Shown one piece after another: positions 36,052-44,331 of a stretch of DNA of 64,000 nucleotides. Position 1 is the stretch's first letter, and each line of letters opens with the position of its first letter. Where the stretch lies: the NCBI GenBank assembly GCA_005888095.1, contig VBKF01000140.1:4602-68601 (forward strand), given 5' to 3'. A model generated the notes under the pieces. That model was not told the origin of the DNA, did not search any database, and saw only the letters and a list, made by a program, of their open reading frames with translations. This stretch comes from Deltaproteobacteria bacterium. GTDB lineage: Bacteria; Desulfobacterota; Binatia; DP-6. The position numbers and the translations under genes are program-made.

Positions 36052-37194
36052 ATGAACGCCTACATCATCGACGCCTGCCGGACGCCCCGCGGTCGCCGTG
36101 GCGCCGGCCTTGCCGGTGTGCACCCGATCGACCTCTGCACCGTGCCGATGCACGCCATCGTGGCGCGCACCGGCGTGGATGCGACCCGCATCGACGACGC
36201 GATCATCGGCTGCGTCACCGAGACGGGCGAGCAGGGCGCCTGCGTCGCGCGCGCCGCGGTGCTGGCCGCCGGCTGGCCGATCGAGATCGCCGGCGTCAGC
36301 CTGAACCGCTTCTGCGGCTCGGGCCAGACGGCCGTCAACCTGGCGGCGCAGGGGGCGGCGTCGGGCGCCTACGACCTGGTCTACGCGGGCGGCGTCGAGA
36401 GCATGAGCCGCTGCCCGATGGGCTCGGACATGGGCCCGCTGCCGCCGAGCCTGACCGAGCGCTACAACCTCGTGCCGCAGGGCATCTCGGCCGAGATGAT
36501 CGCCGAGCGCTGGAACTACTCGCGCGAGCAGCTCGACCGCTATGCCCTCGAGAGCCAGCGCCGCGCCTGGCAGGCGATCCAGGAGGGCCGCTTCGAGAAG
36601 AGCCTCGTCCCGGTCGCGGACGCGCCGCAGCCGGACGGCTCCCGCAAGACCGTGAAGGTCGACGAGCACCCCCGGCCGCAGACGACGCTCGAGGGGCTCA
36701 TGGCGCTCAAGCCCTCGTTCAAGGCCGACGGCAAGATCCACGCCGGCAACTCGAGCGGGATCGTCGACGGCGCGGCCGGCGTGCTCATCGCCTCCGGCCG
36801 CGGCGTCGACGAGCTCGGCCTTACGCCGCGGGCGCGCATCGTCGACACCGTCATCGTCGGCTCCGAGCCCGTGATCATGCTGACCGGCCCCATCCCGGCC
36901 ACCGAGAAGATCCTCCGCCGCACGGGCATGACGATCGCCGACGTGGATCTGGTCGAGATCAACGAGGCATTCGCGCCCGTGCCGATGATCACCATGCAGG
37001 AGGTCGGCATCCCGCCCGAGAAAGTGAACGTGAACGGCGGCGCGATCGCCCTGGGCCATCCGCTCGGCGCAACGGGCGCCATGCTGATCGGCACGCTGCT
37101 CGACGAGCTCGAGCGCCAGGACAAGACCGTCGGCCTGTGCACCATGTGCATCGGCTACGGCATGGGCATCGCGACGATCATCGAGCGGGTGTAG
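36052..37194 (+). CDS. acetyl-CoA C-acyltransferase (thiolase)
   Basis: NRFCGSGQ active-site Cys region, C-terminal GGAIALGHPLGATG and CIGYGMG motifs; ATG at 36052. Confidence 0.85.
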   Translation: MNAYIIDACRTPRGRRGAGLAGVHPIDLCTVPMHAIVARTGVDATRIDDAIIGCVTETGEQGACVARAAVLAAGWPIEIAGVSLNRFCGSGQTAVNLAAQGAASGAYDLVYAGGVESMSRCPMGSDMGPLPPSLTERYNLVPQGISAEMIAERWNYSREQLDRYALESQRRAWQAIQEGRFEKSLVPVADAPQPDGSRKTVKVDEHPRPQTTLEGLMALKPSFKADGKIHAGNSSGIVDGAAGVLIASGRGVDELGLTPRARIVDTVIVGSEPVIMLTGPIPATEKILRRTGMTIADVDLVEINEAFAPVPMITMQEVGIPPEKVNVNGGAIALGHPLGATGAMLIGTLLDELERQDKTVGLCTMCIGYGMGIATIIERV

Positions 37195-37215
37195 GTCGTC
37201 GCTGTAGTCGCGCGG

Positions 37216-37335
37216 CGGCGGGCGGGGCCGGGGGCCGGCGCTCCGCGCTCTCGCCGGTCATCGACGCCGCGGCCACGGGCCCACCGCGTGTCCGGCTCGA
37301 GAGGTCGCGGCGGCCCCCGGCCCCGCCCACCGCCG
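37216..37335. repeat. long-range GC-rich inverted repeat (GGGCGGGGCCGGGGGCCG ... CGGCCCCCGGCCCCGCCC) forming a large potential stem-loop downstream of the thiolase gene
   Basis: Read directly; ~18-bp arms separated by ~65 nt. Confidence 0.4.
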
Positions 37336-37368
37336 CGGGTCACGACAACGCCGGCCCCCGCTCGATAC

Positions 37369-37548
37369 TCCTCTACTGGAGACGAGTGGAGATGTCCTCG
37401 AAGCGCAGCCTGCACGTGCGAAGGGCCGCGAGACCCGAGCCCCGGGCGGGGGTGGCCCCCGCCGCGATCTCTCGAGCCGGACGCGCAGGTCGGCCCTGGT
37501 CGAGGCGTCGATGACCGGCGAGAAGGTGAGCGGAGTGAGCTCGCCCGC
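37369..37548 (+). repeat. direct repeat copy 1 (~180 bp; ~97% identical to copy 2 over the first ~140 bp, then diverging)
   Basis: TCCTCTACTGGAGACGAGTGGAGATGTCCTCGAAGCGC...CCCGGGCGGGGGTGGCCCCCGCC...GGTCGAGGCG recurs at 38383; it contains a GC hairpin and a conserved ~40-codon arginine-rich frame with a GGAG before the ATG. Confidence 0.7.
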
Positions 37549-37575
37549 ATCACCAAGCTAACTGTGAACTGTGGC

Positions 37576-37761
37576 ATGCCGCTGGTCGCGAAGAGCAATG
37601 AGATCTTCGCGCGAGATCCGGAAGTCTTAGCGGGCAGCAAAGAGGCGTACCTCACCTCAGAGATCCAGTGGATCTTGGGTGGATCTAAAAACCGTAGTAA
37701 ATACAATGGGTTAGGCTTGCACCGTCTCGGACCCCATGTTACGGTTAGGCCGTCTCGGTGA
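37576..37761 (+). CDS. hypothetical 61-aa ORF inside the low-GC islet (MPLVAKSNEIFARDPEVLAGSKEAYLTSEIQWILGGSKNRSKYNGLGLHRLG...)
   Basis: In-frame ATG at 37576 in the ~50% GC segment; no clear Shine-Dalgarno; overlaps palindromic GATC-containing motifs. Confidence 0.25.
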   Translation: MPLVAKSNEIFARDPEVLAGSKEAYLTSEIQWILGGSKNRSKYNGLGLHRLGPHVTVRPSR

Positions 37762-37796
37762 TCAGCGCAACCTTCTAGCAAGAAAGAGGGCCAGCG

Positions 37797-38354
37797 ATGG
37801 CGGAAAAGGCGAACCCATTTCGCGACGCGCTCTACGATGCGTTAGGGAGGAGAGGAGTCCGTTGGGTGCGGGACTTTGGCGGGGGGCGGCACGCCGAACT
37901 CTACACGCGCGAGGATCGGTGGCTTGCTCTCCTTGTCCAAAAGACCCTGTCCGCCCAGCCCTGGTGGAACATTCCGCACTACTTCGAAGAGCTACACGCG
38001 CTAGAACAAGAGCATCCGGCATACCTGGTCGTCGAAGTCTTCCAAGACGACCCGCAGGGTGGCACCGTGCTCACCGGAAAGGAGCTTGAGCCGCTGTTCA
38101 TGGCGGGCTCCGCAGACCGCTTCAGAAATGTGAAGGTGCTGCCGAGCGATCTCAGCGCCGGAACATACCTCAGGGGAGCCGAGCGTATGGCGGACTTCAT
38201 CCAGGCGCTTCTGACCGAGCTTCCGCCGGAACCAGGGCTTACACCCACCCAGCTCATTCCTGCGTCGCCACGCCGCCGGCGGCGCAGTCGATGGATGCGG
38301 GAGCTCTTCGGGGAAGAGGATAGCCAGAGCCTCGATCTCCGAGACAAGGATTGA
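37797..38354 (+). CDS. hypothetical protein of unknown function, atypical (lower-GC) codon usage
   Basis: 185 aa with an AGAAAGAGGG Shine-Dalgarno; mixed A/T third positions unlike neighbours; a possible degenerate nuclease-like core (…VRDFGGGRHAELYTREDRWLALLVQK…YLVVEVFQDD…) is speculative. Confidence 0.6.
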   Translation: MAEKANPFRDALYDALGRRGVRWVRDFGGGRHAELYTREDRWLALLVQKTLSAQPWWNIPHYFEELHALEQEHPAYLVVEVFQDDPQGGTVLTGKELEPLFMAGSADRFRNVKVLPSDLSAGTYLRGAERMADFIQALLTELPPEPGLTPTQLIPASPRRRRRSRWMRELFGEEDSQSLDLRDKD

Positions 38355-38382
38355 AGGAGCCGACGTGATGCTCGCGACGCCG

Positions 38383-38562
38383 TCCTCTACTGGAGACGAG
38401 TGGAGATGTCCTCGAAGCGCCGCCTGCACGTGCGAAGGGCCGCGAGGCCCGAGCCCCGGGCGGGGGTGGCCCCCGCCGCGATCTCTCGAGCCGGACGCGC
38501 AGCTCGGCCGTGGTCGAGGCGAGAATAACCGGCGAGAGCGTGAGCGGAGGGGGCCACCCCCG
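38383..38562 (+). repeat. direct repeat copy 2
   Basis: See copy 1; differs by four substitutions in the core and then diverges (…GGCGAGAATAACCGGCGAGAGCGTGAGCGGAGGGGGCCACCCCCGCCCGGGG). Confidence 0.7.
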
Positions 38563-38586
38563 CCCGGGGCGAGCGTCCTACAGCCC

Positions 38587-39939
38587 CTACGCGACGTGCA
38601 GGCTGCGCTTCGGGACGTCCCGCATGAGGATGTCGTCGGGCGACTCGCTGGGCTCGGCGCGCGTCAGGCGCTCGACGCCCTCGCGGACCTCCCGGCGGGT
38701 CATCTGGATCCCGTAGCTCTGCAGGATCTGGCGCATCAGCTCGTAGTGCGTCTCGATCGACTGCGTGACCGAGAGATAGCCGTGGGCACCGGCGCTGCGG
38801 CTGGCCCAGAAGTCGAGCGCCGCCATCTTGAAGAACGCGAGGTCCGTCTCGGCGGGCTCGAGCAGGATGATGTCGCCCTGGAAATTCGGGTCGTCCTGGT
38901 ACTGCCGGATGCCGAGCTGCAGCCGCGAGTGGAGCAGCGTGCGCAGCACCTGGTTGAGGACCACGAGCATGCCCTGGTCCGCCAGCGGCTTGCCCTCGAT
39001 CGTGTACTCGTGCCGCTCGGGATTGTAGCGGCGCGCCACCCGGTTCGAGAACGGGCGGAACGGGTTGTAGCAGATGACGAGGTCGGCGCCGTGTTCGATC
39101 GCCGTGTCGAGGTTCGCCGTCCGGCGCACGCCGCCGTCGACGTAGTCGACGCCCTTGATGCGGGCCGGCTTGTAGAAGCCGGGGAGCGCGGTCGACGCCT
39201 GCACGGCCTCGGAGATGGTGAGCGAGGTGTCCTCGTCGTGCCCGAACACGACGCGCTCGGCGGTGTCCAGGTTCATGGCGACGATGTAGAGCTCGACGCC
39301 GCGCAGCCGGTGCAACACCCGGAAGTCGTTGGAGAGGCCGCGCCGCTCGATGTTGTGGCGGAGGTAGCGCTCGAGCGACGAGTTGTCGAAGAGGCCCGAC
39401 GGCAGATACGCGAGCGGGAAGGGGAACTCGCGCGCGGAGCCGATGGCGTCGATCAGCGGCTTCACGCACTCGACCATGTTGCCGAGCGATGGCTGGCGGC
39501 GGCACTGCTCGAGCGGTTCCTTCAGCTGGCTCACCAGCTCGGGCGTGCGCGAGATGAAGCCGTAGAGGAGGCCGGGAACGTAGGTGGCGAGGTCGACCAC
39601 GAACTCGAGGGGCTTCCGCACGAACTCGGAGACGTTCAGACGGTAGAACTCGAGCGCGCTCAGCTGGGTGAAGTCCTCCGAGGTGCCGTCGATCGAGCGG
39701 AGCATCTCCACCGGGGTGACACCGCCGGCGAGCGGTGCGGCCAGGAAGGCCCCCGCCGACAGCCCGACGTAGATGTCAAAGTCGGTCGTCTTGCGGTTGA
39801 CGAGGAAGTCGTCGAGCGCCTTCAGGCCGCCGAGCTTGTAGGCCCCGCCCGTGACTGCCCCGCCCGCCAGGACGAGAGCTATCCGCGGGTCTCGCTTCCG
39901 CGTCCAGAGGTCGCTCTTGTGAACGATGGTGAGCCCCAT
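38587..39939 (-). CDS. patatin-like phospholipase with C-terminal extension
   Basis: GGAVTGG oxyanion motif and GLSAG (GxSxG) nucleophile, DGG-containing catalytic Asp region; 450 aa. Confidence 0.8.
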   Translation of the reverse strand: MGLTIVHKSDLWTRKRDPRIALVLAGGAVTGGAYKLGGLKALDDFLVNRKTTDFDIYVGLSAGAFLAAPLAGGVTPVEMLRSIDGTSEDFTQLSALEFYRLNVSEFVRKPLEFVVDLATYVPGLLYGFISRTPELVSQLKEPLEQCRRQPSLGNMVECVKPLIDAIGSAREFPFPLAYLPSGLFDNSSLERYLRHNIERRGLSNDFRVLHRLRGVELYIVAMNLDTAERVVFGHDEDTSLTISEAVQASTALPGFYKPARIKGVDYVDGGVRRTANLDTAIEHGADLVICYNPFRPFSNRVARRYNPERHEYTIEGKPLADQGMLVVLNQVLRTLLHSRLQLGIRQYQDDPNFQGDIILLEPAETDLAFFKMAALDFWASRSAGAHGYLSVTQSIETHYELMRQILQSYGIQMTRREVREGVERLTRAEPSESPDDILMRDVPKRSLHVA

Positions 39940-42523: not shown

Positions 42524-43039
42524 ATGACCCAAGCGGACCTACTTGATCGGCTGCCCGCGATCCTCCCCGCCAGCGCGCTCCAGGGGGGCGAGCTCGTCCG
42601 CGGGCAGGCCATCGCCCGGGTCGACCGCGCCGTGATCCGGGAGGCGCTCGCGGCGCTCCGCGACCATCCCGAGACGCGCTTCGACATGCTCACGGATCTG
42701 ACCGTCGTCGACTACCTGGGGCGCGCGCCGCGCTTCGAGGTGGTCTACCAGCTCTACTCGCTCGGCCGGAACCACCGCCTCCGCGTGAAGGCGGCGGTCC
42801 CGGAAGAGGATCCGCTCGTCCCCTCCGTCTCGTCGCTCTGGAAGGCCGCGCTCTGGGCCGAGCGCGAGGCGTGGGACATGTTCGGCATCCGTTTCGCCGG
42901 GCACCCCGACCTGCGGCGCATCCTCATGTACCCGGAGTTCGAGGGCCACCCGCTGCGCAAGGACTACCCCCTCATGCGCCGCCAGCCGCTGGTGCCCGAG
43001 CGCGATCCGCTCGAGCGGCCGTGGTCCCCGCGGGCATGA
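42524..43039 (+). CDS. nuoC: NADH-quinone oxidoreductase subunit C (30 kDa)
   Basis: NuoC-like (…TDLTVVDY…FEVVYQLYS…EREAWDMFGIRFAGHPDLRRIL…). Confidence 0.8.
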   Translation: MTQADLLDRLPAILPASALQGGELVRGQAIARVDRAVIREALAALRDHPETRFDMLTDLTVVDYLGRAPRFEVVYQLYSLGRNHRLRVKAAVPEEDPLVPSVSSLWKAALWAEREAWDMFGIRFAGHPDLRRILMYPEFEGHPLRKDYPLMRRQPLVPERDPLERPWSPRA

Positions 43040-43104
43040 GCGTGAGCGAAGAATACTGATGAGCGTGAGCGAAGAATACTGATGAGCGTGAGCGAAGAAT
43101 ACTG
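43036..43104 (+). repeat. perfect 3 x 23-bp tandem repeat ATGAGCGTGAGCGAAGAATACTG at the nuoC/nuoD junction
   Basis: Read directly; the nuoC stop lies in copy 1 and the nuoD ATG is the start of a truncated 4th copy; each unit encodes a mini-ORF MSVSEEY-stop whose TGA overlaps the next ATG. Confidence 0.8.
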
Positions 43105-44331
43105 ATGAGCGCGGCGCGGGCGCCGGGAGCGGTGACACCGGAGCGCGTTGTCGAGGCCGATCCGACGTCGGAGGTGATGGCGCTCCAGATGGGGCCGTCG
43201 CACCCCGCGTCGCATGGCACCATCAAGTTCAACCTCCGGCTCGACGGCGAGACGATCCTCGACGTCGACGTCGAGATCGGCTACCTCCACCGCGGTTTCG
43301 AGAAAATGTGCGAGCAGGGGACGTGGAACCACGTCTTCCCCTACGCCGATCGGCTGAACTACGCCTCCCCGCTGCTCAACAACGTGGGCTTCGCGCTCGC
43401 GGTCGAGCAGCTCGCCGGCATCACGGCGCCCGAGCGCTGCCAGTACATCCGGGTGATCACCGGCGAGATGTCGCGCGTCACCGACCACCTCACCTGTCTC
43501 GGCATGGCGGCCAACGAGATCGGCGCGATCTCGGCCGGCTTCTACATGCTCGAGGCGCGCGAGTTCCTCTACGACCTGGTCGAGGCGGTCACCGGGGCGC
43601 GGCTCACCGTGACCTACTGCCGGCTCGGCGGGGTCGTGAAGGACCTGCCCGCCGACATGGCCGAGCGCACGCGCTTCGCGCTCAAGCAGATCCGCCGCGT
43701 CCTCGCCGACTGCGACCGGCTCCTGTCCCGCAACCGCATCTTCGTCGATCGCATGGTCGGCGTCGGGAAGCTCGCGCAGGCCGACGCGATCTCGTGGGGC
43801 CTCACCGGCCCGCTGCTGCGCGCCACCGGCGTGCCGTACGACGTGCGCAAGGCCGAGCCCTACCTCGTCTACGACCGGATGGACTTCGAGGTGCCGACCG
43901 GCACGTCGGGCGACAACTACGATCGCTTCATGGTGCGCTTCGCCGAGCTGGAGCAGAGCATGCGCATCATCGAGCAGGCGCTCGCCCGCATCCCCCCCGG
44001 ACCGATCCTGGCCGACGACCCGCGCTTCGTGCTGCCGCCGAAGCAGGAGGTCTACACGACCATCGAGGGGCTCATGAACCACTTCAAGCTCGTCATGGAG
44101 GGCCAGAAGGTGCCCGCCGGCGAGGTCTACGTGGCCACCGAGGGGGGCAACGGCGAGCTCGGCTTCTACCTGGTGAGCGACGGCAGCGGCCGGCCCTACC
44201 GCGTCCGCGTGCGACCTCCCTGCTTCTACGGGATGGCGGCGCTCGGCGAGATGCTGCGCGGGCACATGGTGGCGGACATCATCACCACCTTCGGCCAGGT
44301 CAACATGATCGGGGGCGAGTGTGACCGCTGA
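43105..44331 (+). CDS. nuoD: NADH-quinone oxidoreductase subunit D (49 kDa)
   Basis: MGPSHPASHGTIKF...IGYLHRGFEKM NuoD N-terminal signature; 408 aa. Confidence 0.9.
   Translation: MSAARAPGAVTPERVVEADPTSEVMALQMGPSHPASHGTIKFNLRLDGETILDVDVEIGYLHRGFEKMCEQGTWNHVFPYADRLNYASPLLNNVGFALAVEQLAGITAPERCQYIRVITGEMSRVTDHLTCLGMAANEIGAISAGFYMLEAREFLYDLVEAVTGARLTVTYCRLGGVVKDLPADMAERTRFALKQIRRVLADCDRLLSRNRIFVDRMVGVGKLAQADAISWGLTGPLLRATGVPYDVRKAEPYLVYDRMDFEVPTGTSGDNYDRFMVRFAELEQSMRIIEQALARIPPGPILADDPRFVLPPKQEVYTTIEGLMNHFKLVMEGQKVPAGEVYVATEGGNGELGFYLVSDGSGRPYRVRVRPPCFYGMAALGEMLRGHMVADIITTFGQVNMIGGECDR

Follow-up and report, generated by a model that had tools for sequence, protein, structure and literature searches.

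A single-gene islet inserted with a long duplication of native hairpin-forming DNA between two core genes of a Binatia bacterium

When a short stretch of low-GC DNA lies between two near-identical direct repeats and next to a patatin-like phospholipase gene, is it a mobile or defence module, or did it arise in some other way? This question is raised by a locus in a 64,000-nucleotide stretch of DNA from a bacterium of the Binatia lineage DP-6 (assembly GCA_005888095.1, contig VBKF01000140.1, positions 4,602 to 68,601), which is called the window here and to which coordinates refer unless another contig is named. The islet lies between a thiolase gene and the patatin gene and carries a gene for a protein of 185 aa, which we call X185. 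An initial annotation, made by a model from the letters alone, had taken it for a horizontally acquired cassette or small mobile or defence module with the patatin as its possible effector. We find that the locus is an unusual insertion scar, and neither a defence island nor a multi-copy repeat element: judged by comparison with relatives that lack the islet, ~847 bp of foreign DNA (37536-38382, + strand) was inserted here with a duplication of 167-172 bp of native target.

Insertion of foreign DNA with duplication of its native target

The two repeat copies, B on the thiolase side (37369-37540) and C on the patatin side (38383-38554, both on the + strand), are 172 nt long, 93% identical and spaced 1014 bp from start to start; BLAST aligns them over 167 nt at 94% identity. 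They differ at four positions in the first ~140 nt, and their similarity decays over the last ~30-40 nt, just as the initial annotation had described. The 49-nt core of the repeat occurs exactly twice in the window, with 0 occurrences expected, and BLAST found no third copy there. The core had no match among the GTDB species-representative genomes, and the five contigs that carry it in the JGI metagenomes all come from the thiolase/patatin locus.

A comparison of orthologous loci, which had been proposed as a check, uncovered three relatives whose thiolase/patatin locus contains a single copy of the repeat, beside the thiolase gene, and no islet. These are L024, L023 and L028 (92-94%, 88-90% and 85-86% identical to the window, respectively), the last being a GTDB species-representative metagenome-assembled genome (MAG). 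The window aligns to each of these empty sites up to ~37531-37548 and again from 38383, and the two alignments overlap on one stretch of 165-178 bp; in a multiple alignment, each empty site has one repeat copy, preceded by the sequence to the left of B and followed by the sequence to the right of C. Copy B has a left flank that matches the empty sites, and its tail leaves the native sequence after GTGAGCGGAG, whereas copy C, still joined to the patatin gene, continues into native sequence exactly as at the empty sites. The duplicated block runs from CCTCTACTGG to GTGAGCGGAG and ends at ~37535 in copy B, which is an orphan duplicate. On these alignments, the repeat is of native origin. The annotation had set a local duplication of native sequence against its own reading; the repeat is such a duplication, but it was created by the insertion.

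Every contig that encodes an identical X185 protein has the occupied locus. As the relatives without the islet form nested outgroups, and given its foreign composition, a single gain is far more parsimonious than three losses. The GC content is 72% in the window and 60.4% in the islet; between the repeats it falls to 54-62%, with 55% in the 261 bp upstream of the X185 gene and 62% in the gene itself. The 50-55% estimated before hence applies to the non-coding upstream part (55%), but not to the gene or to the islet as a whole. The deviating codon usage noted in the annotation is confirmed by the GC content at third codon positions (GC3), which is 0.715 in X185 as compared to 0.81-0.96 in seven neighbouring genes. 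Composition and codon usage thus mark the islet as foreign, and its horizontal acquisition is borne out by this foreignness, by its absence from the three relatives and by the occurrence of its own relatives in unrelated, partly plasmid-like contexts. The locus provides an empty-site-matched example of a single foreign gene entering a core intergenic region in an uncultured soil phylum (Binatia).

The repeat belongs to two related palindromes, P1 and P2, and the locus that they occupy is home to all three of the best inverted repeats in the window. P1 (37180-37366, no strand assigned) follows the thiolase stop and has arms that are 94% complementary, with a self-match of 37211-37366 to 37337-37180; an inverted-repeat scan places its inner hairpin arms at 37211-37241 and 37307-37337. 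It extends ~12-15 nt into the 3′ end of the thiolase gene (atcgagcggg… pairing with …cccgctcgat). The P1 segment 37246-37328 is a diverged inverted copy of the repeat's inner part, with 85% identity to 37444-37523. Overall, P1 and the inverted P2 share 75-85% identity in their inner parts, and these two terminator-like palindromes of convergent genes are hence paralogous.

P2 (38405-38619, - strand) is a hairpin of ~215 nt at the 3′ end of the patatin transcript. It overlaps the last ~8 patatin codons, its outer stem consists of the last ~25 nt of the coding sequence, and its inner stem pairs 38453-38494 with 38529-38570; the patatin stop codon falls within an internal loop. As an RNA in the patatin sense, it has a predicted folding energy of -170.2 kcal/mol (z = -10.4). 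It is kept in the clade, and six of its 84 predicted pairs show a compensatory change on both sides in at least one sequence. The loop and distal arm of P2, together with part of its proximal arm, lie in copy C, which thereby completes the palindrome; the neighbour's structured 3′ end has survived the insertion because it was duplicated.

The frame MSSKRSLHV… carried by the repeat corresponds, as reverse complement, to the tail of patatin (…PKRSLHVA). Since the patatin C-terminus is kept (as RDVPKRNLHVA) in L021, which has no palindrome at all, the inverted copy in the repeat derives from patatin. The L021 contig follows the window at 97.9% identity from 43962 to precisely the patatin stop codon (L021:5354, window 38587). 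Beyond this point it continues with unrelated DNA, in which a 108-aa thioredoxin-like open reading frame (ORF) and another PAPS reductase are encoded and both thiolase and palindrome are missing. The alignment places a recombination breakpoint in L021 at the position that the palindrome has in the window.

The copies B and C appear to have exchanged sequence since the insertion. Across the occupied contigs L001-L010 and L027, strains differ in which copy bears which variants; the central tract of copy C is B-type in most strains, while in the window, L001 and L009 it is nearer to the empty-site sequence. Copy B also bears substitutions seen in no empty site, and in L027 it has a 12-bp deletion. 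The patchy exchange of variants between the copies among strains points to ongoing gene conversion.

Could the repeats nevertheless be an element of their own? They had been suggested to behave as a miniature inverted-repeat transposable element (MITE) or att-like element, or to be a small repeated gene or structured RNA. The repeat is indeed rich in hairpins. However, an element of the MITE type should be missing from empty sites, and here each of the three carries the repeat once and lacks only the DNA between the copies. Likewise, its being a dispersed element of the MITE or repetitive extragenic palindromic (REP) type is rejected, as the window, the GTDB representative genomes and the JGI metagenomes gave no dispersed copies, the core being found only at this locus as single-copy native DNA in relatives. 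The 40-codon frame that had been considered a small gene is the above mirror image of the patatin C-terminus and is broken by 1-nt indels in L023 and L028. Rfam gave no family match either at the gathering threshold or at E ≤ 1, apart from a spurious match to a miRNA hairpin (E 0.085) far below threshold. With its core found only at this locus in these searches and without an Rfam match, the repeat does not qualify as a dispersed element or as a known RNA gene. Hence, the repeats are not mobile-element ends, a MITE, a multi-copy att site, a known RNA or a small gene in repeated copies.

The same reading has a second form, in which islet and patatin together make up a defence or toxin module. 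The 450-aa patatin, convergent with X185 as noted before, is encoded at 38587-39939 (- strand; PF01734, E 2.5e-26), adjoining the islet as its right core neighbour and lying outside the inserted module. It gives weak partial matches to phospholipase effector models of PADLOC (E 9e-9 to 8e-5) and a partial match to the NCBIfam model CBASS_lipase, at 24.7 bits against a cut-off of 200. These defence-model matches are partial and fall far short of the NCBIfam family cut-offs, and the protein has 2423 homologues with E < 1e-50, of which most of the best-listed ones are 450 aa long. In 80 fetched loci, from species-representative, mostly Binatia or 'delta' MAGs, it is near full length (~450 aa) at 57-94% identity. 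The three relatives for which gene calls were inspected have the same murU/amgK-like and nuo neighbours, and the empty-site genomes also contain the gene. By this distribution, the patatin is a core Binatia gene and not a linked effector, so that a patatin-effector anti-phage system (similar to CapV of the cyclic-oligonucleotide-based system CBASS) is not supported; X185 itself has no PADLOC match. In either form, as repeat element or as defence module, this explanation is hardly credible. For annotation, a note of caution follows: a patatin beside an islet is no evidence of a defence system. The left core neighbour is the thiolase gene (36052-37194, + strand; Pfam Thiolase_N/C), whose gene call was transferred from L001.

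X185 and its upstream region

What did the insertion bring? The X185 gene is present at 37797-38354 (+ strand), as called in the initial annotation, and its dN/dS of 0.13-0.18 relative to its closest homologues marks it as a real gene under purifying selection. It has no match in Pfam (E ≤ 0.01), NCBIfam, PADLOC or PHROGs; a tblastn search of 72,556 plasmids and 50,697 phages gave no match, and no family member was found in IMG/VR. Relatives are very few: 5.8 billion clusters yielded only 10, and 1.84 billion representatives yielded 12, several of the latter being spurious PAS-repeat kinases. The profile search of these representatives newly gave the short relatives P0131 and P0132, the marginal P0138 (E 6e-4) and multi-PAS_7 histidine kinases. 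The giant kinases among them (P0133-P0137) match profile positions ~71-160 in 5-8 stretches each, with E-values from 1e-11 to 5e-5. We judged them probably spurious as homologues, their scores being sums of 5-8 weak stretches.

While the family profile, searched against PDB sequences, returned only noise, structure prediction was informative. AlphaFold2, supplied with the family alignment, gave a model with a predicted local distance difference test score (pLDDT) of 84.9 and a predicted template-modelling score (pTM) of 0.78. Foldseek, a check that the annotation had asked for, found the Holliday-junction resolvase Hjc as its best match in the PDB (E 8e-5). Among viral structures, uncharacterised phage proteins came first (E 5e-4), and viral Hjc-type resolvases followed from E 3e-3. 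The predicted fold contains the PD-(D/E)XK core of an alpha helix, three beta strands, an alpha helix and a beta strand, and its predicted element order is that of the Hjc/RecU resolvases (alpha, three beta, short beta, alpha, two beta, alpha). By its model, X185 has an Hjc/RecU-type PD-(D/E)XK nuclease fold and represents a new, very small family, though one with no detectable sequence similarity to Hjc/RecU; hhalign of the family against Hjc gave no signal.

Residues of X185 and Hjc were paired by secondary-structure register and not by sequence alignment. In this register, the acidic residue D10 of helix 1 corresponds to E12 of Hjc, E34 lies near D42, and V47-Q48-K49, with the lysine at the end of strand 3, stands at the place of E55-x-K57. 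The position of the catalytic Glu55 thus appears to be taken by a near-invariant valine, the canonical E-x-K reading V-Q-K, and K49 is itself missing in two of the ten members, the two most divergent ones. Because of this replacement and loss, catalysis by X185 is uncertain in the model. X185 further differs from Hjc/RecU by an extra, disordered tail of ~45 residues (141-185), in which full-length members conserve LPPEPGLT…(L/I)P…RRRRRSRW…EED, a basic patch followed by an acidic one; the tail could serve as a partner-binding or DNA-binding peptide. Unlike these resolvases, it is also not a housekeeping repair gene, but sits on mobile-element-like DNA with a putative palindromic operator of its own.

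The islet is homologous to independent contexts over 37609-38359 (81%; L019/L020) and 37652-38362 (79%; L017/L018), so that the homologous module comprises the gene plus 150-190 bp upstream. These homologous modules have a zinc-dependent alcohol dehydrogenase gene and a RelE/helix-turn-helix pair next to them. Within it lies a cluster of RGATCY hexamers (37601-37686, no strand assigned), five in 86 bp as compared to ~1 per kb window-wide, which agrees with the cluster of GATC-containing palindromes reported before and is a putative operator or binding site. It includes a perfect 15-bp palindrome, AGATCCAGTGGATCT, at 37661-37675, which is unique in the window (0.01 expected). The corresponding motif AGATCC-N2-4-GGATCT precedes family genes of four sequence lineages (window/L017-L020, L011/L012 and L013-L016), whose proteins are as little as 51% identical, and is found at none of 85 other loci; it is missing upstream of the divergent members P0010 (L108) and P0132 (L109). 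By this comparison, the palindrome is conserved upstream of family genes.

Downstream of the cluster, a promoter-like element (37717-37745, + strand) consists of TTGCAC, a 17-nt spacer and TACGGT. It is kept in all aligned upstream regions (TTGCAC/TTGACA-N17-18-TACGNT), with TTGACA as its first hexamer in L011 and L013. Scans for a strict sigma-70 consensus and for terminators called nothing, and a promoter role is suggested by conservation only. A ribosome-binding site, GAAAGAGGG, is located at 37782-37790. The cargo is a complete transcription unit of RGATCY cluster, palindrome, putative promoter, ribosome-binding site and 185-aa gene. The 61-codon ORF reported in the upstream region did not hold up as coding: homologous upstream regions differ by indels of 1, 2 and 7 nt, and since these are not multiples of three, a conserved upstream peptide is ruled out.

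The most economical inference from this arrangement is that X185 binds the conserved palindrome sequence-specifically. It may do so as a dimer upstream of its own promoter, which would amount to autoregulation. We also considered whether X185 might be a restriction enzyme for RGATCY; such sites are not depleted in the window (62 observed, 62 expected), and BstYI, BglII and BamHI were not among its fold matches. As a previously unrecognised and very rare Hjc-like family with a conserved palindrome, X185 offers a tractable case in which a new specificity of DNA binding or DNA cutting might be found.

Clean outer boundaries of the module were sought in inverted repeats. Within the islet, 11 of the 13 positions of TCGCCCGCATCAC (37541-37553) agree with 38365-38377 in reverse complement, but the arms fold non-significantly and were rejected as terminal inverted repeats. 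The L017 module is flanked by an inverted repeat with 14 of 15 matches; this was rejected as an element boundary as well, as the homology between L017 and L019 continues 80 bp beyond the right arm.

How the islet may have entered

The islet's relatives sit in unrelated contexts, partly plasmid-like. Among the more distant homologues, P0006 has ParA, ParB, Rep_O and HicAB as neighbours, and P0008 a TrwB coupling protein, RadC and a PDDEXK_1 protein; P0132, also distant, adjoins a KAP NTPase and a ParA-like gene. P0003 lies between a zinc-dependent alcohol dehydrogenase gene before it and a RelE/helix-turn-helix pair after it. The gene pool of X185 is thus that of mobile elements and accessory regions, and X185 presumably acts on DNA for its original mobile-element host.

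In our view, the locus probably arose when one gene was inserted horizontally and an unusually long stretch of target was duplicated, both in a single illegitimate event at a hairpin-prone site. In the ancestral state, the convergent thiolase and patatin genes would have been ~380 bp apart, with a spacer made up of the two related palindromes. The ~847 bp of foreign DNA would then have entered at the distal side of P2 while 167-172 bp of native sequence was duplicated. This could have occurred at a stalled replication fork that switched template, or at a break repaired with limited synthesis, the fragment being copied from a resident plasmid or conjugative element and rejoined 167 bp upstream of the point of departure. 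Copy C would have kept the patatin hairpin complete, leaving copy B as an orphan behind the thiolase gene, and gene conversion between them would have followed. An intact patatin 3′ hairpin, with hairpins on either side of the new gene, may have helped the allele to persist. Fork stalling with template switching, or break repair, is favoured because the target is an extreme hairpin former and because a G5-CCA-C5 mini-hairpin has its foot at one of the insertion junctions. Of this explanation, the joining mechanism, the DNA binding, the autoregulation and the biological role are the parts that we infer.

Several observations weigh against this explanation or parts of it. No donor identical to the ends of the islet (37536-37608 and 38360-38382) was found, and microhomology at the junctions is only hinted at by a weak ACTTGG/ACTGG similarity. 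The term nuclease may be wrong for a protein with valine at the Glu55 position and with K49 lost in its two most divergent members, and the binding of X185 to the palindrome is a prediction. Furthermore, an accidental one-off event does not predict that other family genes are bracketed by direct repeats, and this is what we observe. Each family gene was given a bracketing score, that of the best direct repeat shared by its upstream 450 nt and its downstream 320 nt. This score is 142 in the window (167-nt repeat), 26.5 in L109 (51-nt repeat) and 21.5 in L011 (~62-nt repeat that includes a hairpin with a stem of 10-11 bp). By comparison, the 99th percentile of 1500 random placements is 17, and the maximum among 263 high-GC3 control genes is 20.5. 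Three of six independent contexts are therefore bracketed, each above all control genes, while L013, L017 and L019 showed no flanking direct repeat in the same scoring. The recurrent bracketing hints at a family-specific insertion mechanism.

It may thus be asked whether the module mobilises itself, the Hjc-like protein, alone or with host replication and repair, making the DNA ends that drive the insertion of its own gene, either by primer-template switching or by staggered cleavage of hairpins or cruciforms, with long target duplications of variable length as a consequence. In addition to the bracketing, it speaks for this that the repeat in the window is demonstrably duplicated target DNA, that the repeats in both the window and L011 contain a stable hairpin, and that the predicted fold of X185 is that of junction-resolving and homing nucleases. 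The sequence of the L011 repeat is also found in a single copy after radC on another plasmid-like contig, that of L013, away from that contig's own family gene, and so has the behaviour of a target-type sequence. In all, the two plasmid-like contigs contain this ~65-nt sequence three times (L011:5570-5631, L011:6608-6673 and L013:8947-9017); it consists of a hairpin, GAGCCAACCC-N3-4-GGGTTGGCTC, followed by a conserved tail with AAGGAGGTGA; its two copies on L011 bracket the X185 homologue.

There is also precedent in the Rpn proteins of E. coli (YhgA-like, transposase_31), which are encoded by solitary PD-(D/E)XK genes that migrate horizontally and are situated intergenically between core genes; they were proposed to promote RecA-independent gene acquisition through 3′-OH ends for primer-template switching, and RpnA has little sequence specificity (PMC5350276). 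Like these, X185 is a solitary, horizontally moving gene between core genes, and the mechanism proposed for Rpn would naturally give flanking duplications of variable length. Unlike these, X185 has no PF04754 match, is much smaller (185 aa) and, in contrast to RpnA, has a specific conserved palindrome upstream. The resemblance is limited to lifestyle and possible mechanism. To our knowledge, nuclease-promoted template switching by Rpn proteins has been proposed but never structurally documented.

Against self-mobilisation stand the three contexts without a flanking repeat, the degenerate E-x-K motif, and the presence of one copy per contig with no sign of recent movement within the population. 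The geometry expected of cruciform resolution does not fit either and was rejected, since the centre of the palindrome, at ~38512, does not lie midway between the boundaries of the duplication, 38383 and 38549. An empty site for the L011 context was sought via a neighbouring protease, the closest homologues of which are only 52-55% identical and thus unusable, and L109 is likewise without an empty site. Because no empty sites were obtained for these two, self-mobilisation stays a minority reading, which we hold to be unlikely. With the same reserve, one may picture the X185 family as a new type of minimal mobile unit, a single Hjc-like PD-(D/E)XK gene with a palindromic operator, that would promote its own insertion beside or within hairpin-forming terminator DNA with target duplications of variable length (~50-170 bp). 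If self-insertion were true, the scar would be unlike that of any known transposase or integrase. If the bracketing reflected a dedicated mechanism, it would be a new route of gene insertion resembling nuclease-promoted template switching, and it would explain some of the patterns of an orphan gene between repeats that are seen in genomes.

Free-standing PD-(D/E)XK homing endonucleases, such as I-Ssp6803I and I-Bth0305I, share with X185 the single, selfish-looking gene and the presence/absence polymorphism at one locus. X185 differs from them in that it is not in an intron or intein, and in that occupied and empty alleles are found at this one locus only, the other family members residing in six unrelated contexts and not at the same target. 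Homing by double-strand-break repair also does not duplicate 167 bp of target.

A last alternative is an integration of the Campbell type, in which a circular element bearing the ~170-bp sequence recombined, site-specifically or homologously, with the chromosomal copy and thereby generated repeats like attL and attR. The donor would be a small cassette, or a larger integrative element since reduced to one gene by deletion. Integrative elements that restore the 3′ end of their target, e.g., phage HP1, typically have direct repeats of 50-180 bp, and, as with the long att sites of elements at tRNA 3′ ends, the islet has ~170-bp direct repeats, single-copy in the empty site, of which one preserves the 3′ structure of the target. 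The decay of similarity at the inner edges of both copies would fit this alternative, and the substitutions of copy B that are absent from empty sites could stem from a copy borne by the element. However, the islet contains no tyrosine or serine recombinase, its sole gene is without a family match, and its neighbours are a thiolase and a patatin gene. Moreover, the repeat is unique to this locus and carries an inverted copy of the host's own patatin 3′ end, so that a donor could have obtained it only here; no repeat-like sequence is present in the donor-like modules of L017-L020, L011 and L013. A remnant retaining exactly one intact unit of promoter and gene is also less parsimonious. Classical att recombination is disfavoured because there is no recombinase and because the duplicated DNA is host-specific and absent from donor-like modules, and we consider an integration of this type quite improbable.

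Other observations near the patatin gene

A distant patatin orthologue, in L096 (VBKW01000202.1, DP_19 MAG; 61% aa identity), ends in a near-perfect palindrome of ~208 bp (L096:5222-5429). The outer arms of this palindrome (24/24) coincide with the final codons of the orthologue's coding sequence, and its inner arms of 61 nt are 95% complementary and unrelated to those of the window. As RNA it has a folding energy of -217.6 kcal/mol (z = -22), and ~75 other Binatia patatin loci are without such a structure. This palindrome reflects either an independent origin or selection for a 3′ hairpin that encloses the stop codon.

Further along the window, a perfect 23-bp tandem repeat (ATGAGCGTGAGCGAAGAATACTG) is present in 3.3 copies between nuoC and nuoD (43036-43111). 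In strains L001 and L002, the nuoD starts differ in position by 23 bp, suggesting that the copy number of this repeat is polymorphic.

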